The translations under genes and the position numbers were made by a program. A stretch of DNA of 60,583 bases from Candidatus Eiseniibacteriota bacterium (GTDB lineage Bacteria; Eisenbacteria; RBG-16-71-46; DASYSL01): the NCBI GenBank assembly GCA_031431875.1, contig JANPEF010000017.1, positions 1-60,583 of the forward strand. The letters are read 5' to 3'. The notes beneath the pieces were generated by a model. The model was not told the DNA's origin and did no database searches. It worked only from the letters and a program-made list of their open reading frames with translations. Shown here piece by piece: positions 19,047 through 42,904 of this stretch; the first letter of the stretch is position 1, and every line of letters begins with the position of its first letter.

Positions 19047-19600
19047 GTTCCGCTGCGGCCGCCCTTCTTCTCCCACAGGGCGATCTCGCCGATGACCATG
19101 CCGCGGTCGACGGCCTTCAGCATGTCGTAGACCGTGAGTGCGCAGACGGCGACGGCGGTGAGCGCTTCCATCTCGACGCCGGTGCGGCCGTTGGTGGCGA
19201 CGCGGACCTCGATCGCCAGCGACGGGCCGGCGTCGTCGAAGTCGTAGCGCACGTCGATGCCCTCGAGCGGAATCGAGTGCGCCAGCGGGATGAGCTCGGC
19301 GCAGCGCTTGGCGGCCTGGATCGCGGCGACTTGCGCCACGGTCAGCACGTCGCCTTTGGCGGCGGCGTGCGAGCGCAGCAGGGCGAGTGTGGCGGCGTGC
19401 ATGAAGACCCGGCCGCGGGCGGTGGCTTCGCGCTGGGTGACGTCCTTGGTGCCGACGTCGACCATGCGCGCCTTGCCGTGCTCGTCGAGGTGGGAGGGCT
19501 GCGCTTTCGCCGCGGCCCGCGCGCCGTGCGCGACTTTGCCTGCGGCCGCGCGGGGCGCGGCTTTCTTCGGCTTCGGGCTGGGGCGGCGGGAGGTGGGCAT
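19031..19600 (-). CDS. moaC: cyclic pyranopterin monophosphate synthase
   Basis: SHLD..G.ARMVDV, LIPLAH, TGVEMEAL and YDMLKAVD motifs; basic N-terminal extension. Confidence 0.95.
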   Translation of the reverse strand: MPTSRRPSPKPKKAAPRAAAGKVAHGARAAAKAQPSHLDEHGKARMVDVGTKDVTQREATARGRVFMHAATLALLRSHAAAKGDVLTVAQVAAIQAAKRCAELIPLAHSIPLEGIDVRYDFDDAGPSLAIEVRVATNGRTGVEMEALTAVAVCALTVYDMLKAVDRGMVIGEIALWEKKGGRSGTWRRP

Positions 19601-19764
19601 CGCGGCGAGACTAGGGGAGCGCCCAGAAGGTGTCAAACGCGCGGGGCGGTTGTGTCTTGGTCGTGCCCAAGCGGAATGGGCGATGAGGTCGACATCTCGA
19701 AGTCCCCAGAACGCATTGAAACAAAAGCTGATAGGAGACTCACTACGGAGAACTCTTTTGCCTC

Positions 19765-19793
19765 TTGAACCGGAGAGCCAGCTTGCCGATACT
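19765..19793 (+). promoter_or_regulatory. sigma70-type promoter for the leader RNA/NYN gene
   Basis: TTGAAC-N17-GATACT ending 7 bp before the first hairpin. Confidence 0.55.
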
Positions 19794-19800
19794 TTCACTT

Positions 19801-19868
19801 CAAGCCCTTACGGGGGCTTGGCTCTAATCCCCCCGGCGCCCCTCGGGTCGCCGGGGTTTTCCTTTTCT
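19801..19868 (+). ncRNA. putative structured leader RNA: UACG-loop hairpin followed by an intrinsic terminator
   Basis: CAAGCCCT-TACG-GGGGCTTG (19801-19820); CCCCGGCG...CGCCGGGG (19831-19856) followed by TTTTCCTTTTCT. Confidence 0.5.
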
Positions 19869-19879
19869 CGGGGGAGTCA

Positions 19880-20524
19880 ATGGCCGGTCCGACACGGGCA
19901 ATCCTCTTCGTCGACGGCAGCAACTGGTATCACGGTTGCAAGGCCATTGGTCTGAGGGGCATCGGCCACACGAACTTCTTCAAGGTCGCCCACAAGCTGC
20001 TCGGGCCTCGGGACCGGATCGCGACTCGCTACTATGTCGGACGCGTTCCAAGCACGGGGAACCTGGATCTGGCACGACAGCAGCAGGCTTTCCTCGGCTA
20101 CCAGCAGTCCCTGGACCGGCGATTCAGCATTCACTTCGGCAGAATCGAGACCCGCCCGCTCGAGAACTTCGCCGCCAAGGAGCTCCGCCGCTACCTCGCT
20201 GAGTTGCCCGTCCGAATCGATCCGGTCGTCTACGCGAAGCTGAGCGATATCGCCAATCGATACGCAGTCGTCGACGTGATGGTCGAAAAGGCGGTCGACG
20301 TTCAAATCGCAACCGACATGGTCCTCATGGCCGAACGAGACGAGTACGACTGCGCTTACCTGCTCTCGGCCGACGGTGACCTTACGCCTGCCGTCGAGTT
20401 CGTTCGCAAGAAAGGAAAAAAGGTCTATGTGGTCAGTGCCTCGAGCGGCGCGAGGCTCGCCGCGGCCTGTGACTCGTTCATTCGCCTCAACCTCGCCTGG
20501 TTCGACGACGTCATGGGCGGGTAG
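19880..20524 (+). CDS. NYN-domain (LabA/DUF88, PIN-like) putative RNase
   Basis: FVDGSN, EKAVDVQIATDM and LSADGDLTPA acidic active-site motifs. Confidence 0.9.
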   Translation: MAGPTRAILFVDGSNWYHGCKAIGLRGIGHTNFFKVAHKLLGPRDRIATRYYVGRVPSTGNLDLARQQQAFLGYQQSLDRRFSIHFGRIETRPLENFAAKELRRYLAELPVRIDPVVYAKLSDIANRYAVVDVMVEKAVDVQIATDMVLMAERDEYDCAYLLSADGDLTPAVEFVRKKGKKVYVVSASSGARLAAACDSFIRLNLAWFDDVMGG

Positions 20525-20563
20525 GCGGGCCGTGGCGCAGGGGGCACGGAGGTCGGCGCCTCC

Positions 20564-20593
20564 TTGACACCCGGGAATGGCCCCCCGTAGTGT
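20564..20593 (+). promoter_or_regulatory. sigma70-type promoter of the membrane protein-SBP-HK-RR operon
   Basis: TTGACA-N18-TAGTGT. Confidence 0.5.
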
Positions 20594-20673
20594 CAAACGC
20601 GCTGCGGCGCTTGGATGCGCCGCGTGTCCCGCGCCGGGGCCCGTCCGGCGTGCACGAGAGGAGCGACCTTCCC

Positions 20674-42589: not shown

Positions 42590-42799
42590 ATGGAACTCCT
42601 CGAACTGTCCGCGGCAGACGAAGCCCTCGTCCTCATGATGGGGAGCGACAAAGACGACGCCGACGAAGAATTCATCGACGACCTCGACGAAGAAGAGGAT
42701 GACGATGACGATGATGACGACGACGCCGACGACTTCGACGAAGATGAAGATGACGACGACCTGGACGATGAGGAAGATCTCGAGGACGACGACGAGTAG
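42590..42799 (+). CDS. 69-aa extremely acidic small protein or leader peptide
   Basis: 45 of 69 residues are D/E; mixed GAC/GAT/GAA/GAG codons hold the frame. Confidence 0.65.
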   Translation: MELLELSAADEALVLMMGSDKDDADEEFIDDLDEEEDDDDDDDDDADDFDEDEDDDDLDDEEDLEDDDE

Positions 42800-42904
42800 T
42801 CGTCTCGCGAGGCACGATCGATCCCGCCGCGACCCGGCGCGGGGAGGCGCGTCCTCCTCGCGCCGTCGTCATTTCACGGGCCCCGTGTCGGAAGGAGAGA
42901 CGCC

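Follow-up and report, generated by a model that had tools for sequence, protein, structure and literature searches.

Does the short structured RNA that appears to be encoded directly upstream of a solitary NYN-domain gene act as an antidote to the encoded protein, as the leader of its mRNA, or in some other capacity? This question arises from one locus in the window, by which we mean the whole 60,583-nt stretch of DNA that was analyzed. An earlier note on this DNA had described the locus as a promoter, a hairpin with a UACG loop, a GC hairpin with a U-tail, and a solo NYN open reading frame (ORF), and all of these were found in place when the letters were re-read. The features, with their coordinates in the window, are as follows.

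19604..19642, no strand assigned: imperfect direct repeat on the left side, attL-like, diverged from the ancestral intergenic sequence
19643..20589, + strand: low-GC inserted cassette of about 0.95 kb (promoter, small RNA, and NYN gene), from GC content and cross-genome comparison
19765..19793, + strand: sigma-70-type small-RNA promoter (TTGAAC at 19765-19770, a 17-nt spacer, GATACT at 19788-19793), from the letters and conservation
19797..19868, + strand: small RNA of about 66-72 nt; predicted start at about 19797-19800, 3' end within the U-tail
19801..19820, + strand: hairpin P1, 8 bp with loop UACG and closing pair U.G, from fold and covariation
19821..19830, + strand: single-stranded linker GCUCUAAUCC, from column frequencies in the family
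19831..19856, + strand: hairpin P2, CCCCGGCG..CGCCGGGG, from fold, terminator scan, and covariation
19857..19868, + strand: U-tail TTTTCCTTTTCT, 3' of P2 and forming with it an intrinsic terminator (19831..19868)
19871..19877, + strand: Shine-Dalgarno-like G-rich run GGGGGAG before the NYN start codon
19880..20524, + strand: gene for a NYN-domain predicted RNase of 214 aa, HEC-09-like, from Pfam, PADLOC, and AF2/Foldseek
20562..20602, + strand: right direct repeat; an intact ancestral intergenic copy that bears the promoter of the next gene

Small RNA, NYN protein, and cassette

P1 begins 7 nt past GATACT, and the distance from the end of the U-tail to the ATG of the NYN gene (19880) is 11 nt, GGGGGAG included. 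A generic scanner reported a terminator at 19841-19856 in the window but gave no report of the promoter at 19765-19793, because TTGAAC/GATACT scores 8/12 consensus positions and falls below the scanner cut-off of 9/12. With the scanner silent, the promoter call rests on conservation: among 48 distinct upstream regions of homologues, 44 have a TTGAC-like -35 element and a -10 element at an equal distance. The region 19790-19882 folded with -41.4 kcal/mol (z = -3.06; 1/200 shuffles as good), and the 72-nt RNA at 19797-19868 folded with -36.7 kcal/mol (z = -3.59; 0/200 shuffles as good). A covariance model built from eight loci, R1, matched the window at 19791-19864 with 72.4 bits (E = 5e-19). 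Neither TRF nor a repeat finder detected tandem or direct repeats in the window RNA, and P1 and P2 are dissimilar to each other.

Known RNA families and other elements were also considered. No Rfam 15 family was matched at its gathering score by the window RNA or by 17 related loci, and the best sub-threshold match of the window RNA was anti-hemB, with 17.4 bits against the 49.5 required. No tRNA or tmRNA lies near the site. A repetitive element was ruled out, the leader being single-copy in the window's own genome, and an integron attC-like site was dismissed by eye, as there is no R'/R'' consensus and the promoter and U-tail are conserved. Elsewhere in the window, R1 gave a weak match at 42799-42873 (20.5 bits), which is an ordinary GC-rich intergenic stem.

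The NYN ORF matched PF01936 with E = 1.3e-18 and 68.3 bits (gathering cut-off, 24.2), and NYN was the only domain returned by the Pfam search of the window protein. The best Foldseek matches of its AF2 model (pLDDT 92) were 2qip and MARF1 NYN domains. Acidic motifs that had been judged intact by eye proved to be so on alignment, D12, E136, D140, D165, and D167 all lying in invariant columns among 32 sequences. From its modeled fold and these invariant acidic residues, the NYN protein is predicted to be an endoribonuclease. The best PADLOC family for the window protein was HEC-09 (E = 1.7e-19, 68 bits, in two stretches), as it was for 20/20 diverse relatives; compared with the HEC-09 profile, the window protein has an extra insert of approximately 50 aa. 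Plasmid members of HEC-09 matched the profile end to end (E = 6e-47 and 4e-46, 155-158 bits). Searches with the window protein turned up no close homologue in the plasmid (E <= 1e-10) and phage (E <= 1e-6) collections, and a more HEC-09-like relative used as the query retrieved 17 plasmid records and 1 phage record.

The GC content of the cassette is 0.57-0.66 versus 0.69-0.78 in the flanks, and its neighbors in the window are moaC/moeA and a UPF0259-like membrane protein. It is flanked by imperfect direct repeats of approximately 39 bp that share an identical 13-bp core, GTGTCAAACGCGC, at 19630-19642 and 20590-20602. The following operon was correctly said in the earlier note to have its own promoter, which reads TTGACA (20564-20569), N18, and TAGTGT (20588-20593), and the same TTGACA-N18-TAGTGT element also exists in another genome of the genus, at its empty site. 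One genome of the genus (G001) has an empty site with no cassette, another (G002) carries other cargo at the site of the cassette, and the distribution is patchy (4/40 relatives, 0/5 same-genus genomes). On these sequence comparisons, the cassette appears to move and to behave as a selfish, mobile unit, and the empty, NYN-RNA, and alternative-cargo states within one genus provide a natural example of cassette exchange. The alternative cargo had only a sub-threshold HicA_toxin match (E = 5e-4, 20.5 bits versus a cut-off of 27), by which a toxin-antitoxin identity is not established, and NCBIfam and PDB sequence searches with this cargo gave nothing useful.

Conservation of the RNA and its linkage to the NYN gene

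A covariation check on the upstream regions of homologues had been proposed beforehand and was positive, revealing a conserved, covarying RNA of approximately 70-80 nt that has a promoter and a terminator of its own. In an alignment of 49 distinct sequences, 93.2% of cells were paired, and double (compensatory) changes occurred at 18 of the 22 base pairs, with 10/10 for the pairs of P1. The covariation score was 0.436 compared with 0.137 in shuffles, none of 500 shuffles reached 0.436, and the score fell to 0.10 or less when the pairing partners were slid. U.G pairs, such as the P1 closing pair in 21 of the 49 sequences, are compatible with the sense strand only. The U-run after P2 is likewise conserved among the 49. 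The family consensus is YACG for the P1 loop, YUU(A/G/U)A-YCC leading into a C-run for the linker, and CCCCGG-N-GUCUGG..CCACAC-G-CCGGGG for P2, the inner stem of which is shortened in the window copy. The motif recurs across phyla, and the P2 stem sequence is kept across phyla together with its C.C and N.G mismatches. This cross-phylum conservation of stem sequence indicates that P2 is more than a terminator.

These data bear on whether the locus encodes a functional RNA at all. A terminator and a chance stem in the promoter region, or DNA-level recombination sites of the cassette, might produce such a pattern, and repeats do flank a cassette that apparently moves. However, the covariation is strong and restricted to the sense strand, the promoter and U-tail are conserved, and the motif is found in several phyla. 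For practical purposes, covariation and promoter conservation refute the absence of a functional RNA, to which we give almost no weight. As far as sequences can tell, the RNA motif is a well-supported and new class of structured RNA that is missing from Rfam 15.

We then considered close loci, defined by a NYN protein identity of 38% or more, of which 57 were assessable. A full-length R1 match lay beside the NYN gene in 56 of these 57 (54 upstream in tandem and 2 convergent), and the single exception, L105, is a 5'-truncated NYN gene; no intact close NYN gene lacked the RNA (0/57). RNA-first genome scans yielded 15 genomes with strong matches, 12 with an adjacent NYN gene and 3 with an orphan RNA, and G008 has two RNA copies in tandem. 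In four loci (L027, L051, L079, and L082), the RNA is located downstream of the NYN gene in convergent orientation with its own TTGAC promoter, and the 3' end of the RNA adjoins the end of the NYN ORF or overlaps it. Because of this convergent arrangement, the RNA is probably a separate gene and not merely a leader. In the genomes compared, the linkage between the RNA and the NYN gene is tight and flexible in position, yet not absolute. The flanks of 22 related loci contain mostly housekeeping genes, and no conserved protein-coding neighbor was found among their 92 flanking ORFs, in line with the previous observation that the cassette has no protein antitoxin gene.

The tandem loci can also be explained by a cis-acting autoregulatory leader or attenuator, in which the NYN mRNA would begin with the hairpins as its 5' leader, transcription would be throttled by the terminator, and the RNase would cut or bind its own leader for feedback, with no antidote role. 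E. coli has such feedback through the leaders of rne and rnc, and eukaryotic NYN/PIN-like RNases are known to recognize stem-loops. The 54/57 tandem loci, with a start codon at a median of 13 nt past the model end, are in keeping with this explanation, which the tandem leader-hairpin layout suits as well as it does an antidote. Such a leader would not account for the four loci in which the RNA is a gene apart, convergent and under a promoter of its own, the three orphan RNAs without any NYN gene, the two tandem copies in G008, or the two to three repeated units in relatives described below. Moreover, no conserved alternative antiterminator pairing was found, and the cassette behaves as a mobile unit. 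We consider a purely cis-acting leader unlikely. Of the two roles that had been suggested in the earlier note, RNA antitoxin or attenuator, the attenuator is weakened by the four convergent loci, and the antitoxin is a role that we infer.

Proposed function of the RNA-NYN pair

The explanation that we favor, with a probability of roughly one half, is that the pair consists of a type III-like RNA antitoxin and a NYN toxin outside toxIN, cptIN, and tenpIN. A strong sigma-70 promoter would give rise to a stable structured RNA of approximately 70 nt, composed of a 5'-terminal P1, a C-rich linker, and P2, and ended by its own intrinsic terminator. The NYN gene, which starts approximately 10-30 nt past the terminator, would be transcribed only by read-through, because the start codon is so near the model end (median 13 nt, range -3 to 45, n = 60) that there is no room for a separate NYN promoter; read-through alone would in turn keep the RNA in large excess over the enzyme. 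The small RNA would be both antidote and partner of the NYN RNase, with the protein binding the conserved P2/linker element and being held inactive. When the RNA supply stops, by transcription shut-off in phage infection or by loss of the element, the RNase would be freed and would cut cellular or phage RNA. RNA-protein binding, neutralization, toxicity, and the trigger are steps that we infer.

The two-component explanation is supported by an asymmetry expected of a toxin-antitoxin pair, namely that RNA-less intact NYN genes were absent among the close loci (0/57) and orphan RNAs occurred in three cases. Also in its favor are the covariation, the promoter belonging to the RNA, the conserved P2 stem sequence, the repeated units in relatives, the mobile behavior of the cassette, and the kinship to HEC-09. 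Counted against it are the absence from the window RNA of tandem direct repeats, which type III antitoxins typically have, the lack of a close plasmid or phage homologue, the lack of protection by HEC-09 against the phages tested, the same three orphan RNAs, and three distant NYN genes with no recognizable array upstream.

The C-rich linker raises another possibility, base-pairing control of a type I-like kind. The linker and the 5' arm of the abundant RNA would act as an anti-Shine-Dalgarno sequence that masks the G-rich ribosome-binding site of the NYN mRNA; where the RNA is convergent, it would instead pair with the 3' end of that mRNA. Of 38 start regions, 27 do have a G-run or GGAG-like word 4-20 nt ahead of the start codon, with complementarity to the invariant C-run, and the convergent RNA does reach or overlap the end of the NYN ORF with its 3' end. 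However, cognate RNA/start-region duplexes (-12.1 kcal/mol) were no better than non-cognate duplexes (-11.5 kcal/mol), and 4/6 C residues are tied up in P2, the stem of which is very stable. Nor would base pairing account for the P1 loop or for the conservation of the P2 stem sequence, and we see only a slim chance that base pairing is the function of the RNA.

Distant HEC-09-like NYN genes have two to three tandem units of 36-40 nt each at the place corresponding to the window RNA. Each unit consists of a single-stranded A/U-C-rich motif and a hairpin, and the last unit doubles as the terminator. L087 has two units that are 29/36 identical with a period of 37 nt, and in L095 and L099 three hairpins recur every 38 nt. 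For L087 and L095, the arrays are based on our own alignment and on hairpin spacing, and TRF called no array in either locus. Hairpin arrays are also located upstream of full-length HEC-09 genes on a 3461-bp E. coli/Serratia plasmid and a Leptospira plasmid; three distant NYN genes (L100, L107, and L089) have no recognizable upstream array. A survey of repeat units by regex and MFE gave a count of 10/16, which is unreliable because the regex missed 6/14 RNAs and MFE merged some hairpins. The single-stranded motif in the relatives reads A-U-C-A-C-C-(U)-C-C, which we take to resemble the 3' tail of 16S rRNA.

This conserved motif, its likeness to the 16S rRNA tail, and the tight linkage could alternatively reflect an RNA cofactor, guide, or sensor that the NYN protein needs for its activity or targeting, for example as a scaffold or substrate-like decoy, and that activates rather than inhibits it. 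That HEC-09 alone had no defense phenotype, according to the available part of the source cited below, would fit such a requirement. The layout that provides excess RNA by read-through and the orphan RNAs suit an antidote better, and no variable guide segment is present, the variable part being the base-paired P1 stem. An activating RNA is, in our estimation, quite unlikely.

The antitoxin explanation can be carried further. HEC-09-like NYN RNases and hairpin-array RNAs might make up a fourth family of type III toxin-antitoxin/abortive-infection systems, one that has no structural relation to the three known families and is found in several phyla and on small plasmids. The antitoxin element would then be the terminator hairpin itself, and the conserved C-rich motif would be a pseudo-substrate mimicking the anti-Shine-Dalgarno tail of 16S rRNA, pointing to the 3' end of the ribosomal RNA within the ribosome as the target. 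We offer this extended scheme as speculation with little prospect of being right in full.

Comparison with known systems

The convergent type I pairs of B. subtilis, txpA/RatA and bsrG/SR4, have a small membrane peptide as the toxin. The four loci with a convergent RNA gene that adjoins the 3' end of the nuclease gene or overlaps it resemble these pairs, whereas most NYN loci are tandem without antisense overlap and the candidate toxin is a predicted RNase of approximately 200 aa.

In type III systems, a single promoter drives a non-coding RNA and, by read-through of the rho-independent terminator that follows, an endoribonuclease gene (PMC13682666). The window cassette has the same operon logic as ToxIN, CptIN, and TenpIN: the RNA is directly upstream under a shared promoter (54/57 tandem; promoter in 44/48), and the two genes are separated by a rho-independent terminator (P2 and U-tail, 19831-19868). 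Small, mobile, and patchily distributed modules are common to both. By contrast, the window RNA is not a tandem-direct-repeat antitoxin but two dissimilar hairpins, although its distant relatives have two to three units; for TenpI, the same source gives two non-identical repeats that were missed by TRF (PMC13682666). In addition, the terminator hairpin here is the conserved element itself and not an appendix, the RNA gene may sit convergent to the candidate toxin gene, and the toxin fold is NYN/PIN-like rather than ToxN-like. Homology to toxIN, cptIN, or tenpIN was not found, with NYN as the only Pfam match, NYN domains as the top Foldseek matches, and no Rfam match for the window and 17 loci. 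In the earlier note, the pairing had not been recognized as a described type III family, which agrees with these Pfam and Rfam 15 results and with the literature: among the main texts searched, none connects NYN proteins to type III systems or to RNA antitoxins.

The NYN.COG1432 group was listed as 'function unknown' with housekeeping operon contexts (PMC5499597). The window protein has the domain and acidic active-site residues in common with LabA-like NYN proteins (PF01936, NYN.COG1432, 2qip), but in its clade the gene stands alone, is mobile, and has a small RNA devoted to it. HEC-09 (PADLOC PDLC04163) is a NYN-domain candidate defense gene embedded in Hma systems, for which the accessible portion of the preprint reports no protection against the phages tested and mentions no RNA component (Payne et al., bioRxiv 10.1101/2024.01.29.577857). 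Plasmid members match the HEC-09 profile more strongly than the window protein does, and the window gene is outside any Hma or other defense system.

Type III families have so far numbered three and share one toxin fold. If a NYN family with its own RNA is real, RNA antidotes would have evolved independently for a second nuclease superfamily, and some of the LabA/NYN proteins, a very large group listed as 'function unknown', would gain a first concrete function. It would also supply a missing component for HEC-09, which had no phenotype when tested as far as the accessible portion of that preprint goes, and the RNA would need to be considered in tests of HEC-09.

The promoter-RNA-NYN layout and conservation of its RNA

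Sequence reading located in the window all of the elements that the earlier note had described, exactly as first described, namely, a promoter, a hairpin with a UACG loop (P1), a GC hairpin (P2) with its tail, and an NYN ORF. The observation of a promoter-RNA-terminator-NYN layout is confirmed as real.

Features of the RNA-NYN cassette (window positions, forward strand)
19765-19770, -35 element TTGAAC (sequence reading)
19788-19793, -10 element GATACT, after a 17-nt spacer and seven bases before P1
19801-19820, hairpin P1, 8 bp, loop UACG
ten bases, linker between P1 and P2, GCUCUAAUCC
19831-19856, GC hairpin P2 (sequence reading and fold)
ending at 19868, tail after P2, UUUUCCUUUUCU
eleven bases, gap from the tail to the ATG, containing GGGGGAG
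19880-20524 (+), NYN-domain ORF, 214 aa (Pfam PF01936, E = 1.3e-18)

The predicted fold of the 72-nt RNA consists of the two hairpins (-36.7 kcal/mol, z = -3.59, equaled by none of 200 shuffles), and the longer segment 19790-19882 gave z = -3.06. A generic scanner called the terminator; it did not call the promoter, whose hexamers match 8 of 12 consensus positions, one under the cut-off.

Close NYN homologues (46-62% identity) were found in only 4 of 40 related genomes and in none of five same-genus genomes. All four were preceded by a TTGAC-N17-GATACT-like promoter, a first hairpin whose stem sequence varied while its pairing was kept, a short linker, and CCCCCGG...CCGGGG with a U-run. The same layout was present at three loci from species-representative genomes (a Lysobacteraceae MAG, a Polyangia MAG, and an uncultured bacterium). 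R1, a covariance model of the RNA, was seeded with eight sequences (the window, the four related-genome loci, and these three) and run over 91 sources: the window, 80 metagenome loci picked by protein similarity, 3 viral, 3 genome-collection, and 4 related-genome loci. The tabulated set, which contains near-duplicate rows such as L034/L037, comprises L003 together with 83 loci from the metagenome, viral, and genome-collection sources; it omits four 3′-end fragments (L080, L081, L083, and L086), the window, and L004-L006, and the window and L004-L006 all have R1 matches. At the 60 loci whose protein identity was 38% or higher, a full R1 match lay directly upstream on the gene's strand in 54 and downstream in convergent orientation in 2, and 3 had no upstream DNA on the contig. 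The sole assessable locus lacking the RNA, L105, has a 5′-truncated NYN gene; none of the 57 assessable loci has an intact close NYN gene that lacks the RNA.

Pairing statistics were calculated on the 54 best R1 matches (49 distinct sequences). Cells were paired in 93.2% of cases versus 76.2% in shuffles, and 18 of 22 pairs had changes on both sides, as did 10 of 10 in P1. The covariation score, obtained on a model-fitted alignment that is biased toward structure, was 0.436 versus 0.137 in shuffles, was attained by 0 of 500 shuffles, and was at most 0.10 when partners were slid by 1-3 columns; when the eight seeds were simply aligned with MAFFT, RNAalifold gave the identical two helices. The check for covariation upstream of NYN homologues, as proposed in the earlier note, therefore revealed a conserved, covarying structure. 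U.G pairs are frequent (at the closing pair of P1, for example, in 21 of the 49 sequences) and suit the sense strand only, so the conserved element is an RNA and not a DNA palindrome. Elsewhere in the window, a weak R1 match at 42799-42873 (20.5 bits) was an ordinary GC-rich stem after a gene without the family signature and was attributed to chance.

The RNA as a separate gene linked to NYN

In 44 of the 48 distinct upstream regions, the position of the -35 and -10 elements was constant (TTGAC-like -35; -10 with at least 3/6 matches, 16-18 nt downstream), so that transcription would start no more than a few bases from the P1 foot. The U-run behind P2 is nearly invariant. From the end of the model to the estimated NYN start codon the median distance was 13 nt (range -3 to 45), leaving no room for a second promoter; in the tandem layout, NYN would thus be transcribed only by read-through. 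At L027, L051, L079, and L082, the RNA has a TTGAC promoter to itself and lies downstream of NYN in the opposite orientation; its terminator abuts or overlaps the NYN stop codon. At one locus (L005/L124, G008:C31 4669-4747 and 4810-4884), the RNA is duplicated in tandem ahead of a single NYN gene.

Genome scans with the RNA models (102 genomes from the order and 151 from the phylum, overlapping sets) gave strong matches (E ≤ 1e-9) in 15 genomes, one locus each, and an NYN gene adjoined the RNA in 12. The RNAs in the other three (G051, G060, and G098), at L127 1501-1580(-), L128 332-412(+), and L130 1501-1579(-), had no NYN gene within 1.5 kb: that of G051 adjoins a type I restriction-modification hsdM gene, that of G060 lies ~150 nt before a gene for a SocA/Panacea-domain protein, and one of the three is near rpe. 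Weak or partial matches in G045 and G086 from the order scan were also without an NYN gene. Orphan RNAs thus occur, and no intact close NYN gene lacking the RNA was seen (0 of 57); this is the asymmetry predicted by a toxin/antidote pair, although a decaying leader could also leave an orphan RNA behind. The earlier note had offered an RNA antitoxin or an attenuator; as a cis autoregulatory leader, the second of these is weakened by the orphans and the convergent loci, where the linkage persists although position and orientation differ, which favors a partner able to act in trans. The antitoxin part stands as plausible.

The P2 stem reads CCCCGG-N-GUCUGG ... CCACAC-G-CCGGGG across phyla, with a conserved C.C mismatch and N.G position; the P1 loop is YACG in most sequences, and the linker consensus, YUU(A/G/U)A-YCC, leads into an invariant C-run. 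Terminators usually conserve shape but not sequence, and P2 would therefore be more than a terminator: we infer an element that is specifically recognized, most simply by the NYN protein. Antisense control by the C-run of a G-rich NYN ribosome-binding site remains an alternative, as 27 of 38 NYN start regions contain a G-run or GGAG-like word, but cognate RNA/start-region pairs were not better than non-cognate ones. An RNA that serves NYN as a cofactor or decoy likewise remains.

The NYN protein and mobility of the cassette

The AlphaFold2 model of the window NYN protein (mean pLDDT 92.2, pTM 0.81) was nearest to VPA0982 (2qip, E = 4e-8) and MARF1 NYN domains among solved structures, and D12, E136, D140, D165, and D167 are invariant columns in a 32-sequence alignment. 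For every protein tested, the top PADLOC profile was HEC-09, a candidate defense family: E = 1.7e-19 for the window protein, 1e-14 to 1e-27 for diverse relatives (20/20), and 6e-47 and 4e-46, end to end, for the NYN genes carried by a 3461-bp E. coli/Serratia plasmid and by a Leptospira plasmid. In the available text of the sources, the LabA-like NYN group is of "function unknown" in a PIN-superfamily survey (PMC5499597), and HEC-09 is an NYN protein inside Hma systems, with no protection given and no RNA component mentioned (Payne et al., bioRxiv 10.1101/2024.01.29.577857). Of 5426 complete E. coli genomes, 4 contain the 3461-bp plasmid (L138, NZ_CP063347.1), which Serratia rubidaea also has; its only annotated features are a VbhA-family antitoxin gene and the HEC-09 NYN gene, which is full-length and preceded by an RNA of three hairpins. 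Other variants were an NYN frame open over 612 codons (L023 2986-4821), perhaps through fusion or loss of the stop codon, two tandem NYN genes (L068, 206-889 and 1073-1723), and a distant NYN paralogue adjoining a SAM-I/IV riboswitch match (L007 531-661(-), 48.9 bits; gathering score 41.1).

GC content is 57-66% at 19600-20600 versus 69-78% around it, and a 13-bp exact repeat (19630 and 20590) bounds the cassette. In the same-genus genome G001 (~89% identical flanks), the moaC/UPF0259 spacer is undisturbed, with one copy of CTTGACA...GTAGTGTCAAACGCGC; the window carries ~39 bp of this spacer in two copies, a diverged left one (19604-19642) and an intact right one (20562-20602) that forms the promoter of the next gene. 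Only 3 nt separate the moaC start codon (19598-19600(-)) from the left repeat, so each of the two divergent genes beside the cassette retains a copy of its former upstream sequence after the duplication. Exactly the same site in G002 (95-97% identical flanks; L108, G002:C228, locus 500-1500) holds other cargo of ~960 bp, with minus-strand ORFs of 142 aa (Zn-ribbon-like N-terminus) and 94 aa (sub-threshold HicA_toxin match, E = 5e-4). Cassette exchange thus seems to have a hotspot in this spacer. The genomes searched also included the unpublished G007, on which no conclusion here depends. Direct repeats also flank the cassette in L057 (37 bp; 2691 and 3586) and L077 (20 bp; 2860 and 3647), lengths unusual for transposon target duplications, and repeats of at least 11 bp were not found at 19 other loci. 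The flanking genes of 22 loci share no common family and are mostly housekeeping genes, a few being phage- or defense-related.

Distant relatives and comparison with type III systems

Of 23 loci below 38% identity, models found the RNA in 8 (6 tandem and 2 convergent). Inspected by eye, twelve of the other 15 have a TTGACA-type promoter, one to three hairpin units, and a U-run immediately ahead of the start codon, and inspection of the upstream sequence of L100 and L107 showed no hairpin array. L087/L088 carry two 36-nt units (29/36 identical, differences compensatory), and L095/L099 carry three successive 25-nt hairpins with a 38-nt period; in L089, another promoter with a two-unit array follows the NYN gene, at about 2240-2360. 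The E. coli/Serratia and Leptospira plasmid genes have similarly structured upstream RNAs (z = -4.8 and -4.4). Array units open with an A/U-C-rich single-stranded word (AUCACCCC, AACCUCC, or UUAACUCC) leading into the stem. The window clade appears to be derived, its final unit (linker plus P2) being conserved and its initial one (P1) diverged.

The conserved association of the RNA with NYN is genuine and, within the reach of our literature search, undescribed: nothing relevant turned up for NYN in combination with type III or an RNA antitoxin. The earlier note, which did not recognize the pairing as a described type III family, agrees with this result and with the available text of the October 2026 TenpIN paper, where the families, defined by toxin homology, are still three (PMC13682666). 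A type III-like model is best supported; the architecture and linkage are observed, and binding, inhibition, toxicity, and trigger would follow by analogy with ToxIN, CptIN, and TenpIN. The RNA, with its 5′ hairpin and terminator hairpin, would be abundant and stable and would keep inactive a nuclease produced from rare read-through transcripts only, and loss of the RNA supply would release it. We consider this RNA-antitoxin reading plausible, with a probability of roughly one half. TRF, run on the window, L087, and L095, called none of the arrays; in this they resemble TenpIN, since two non-identical TenpI repeats likewise escaped TRF according to the same portion of that paper (PMC13682666).
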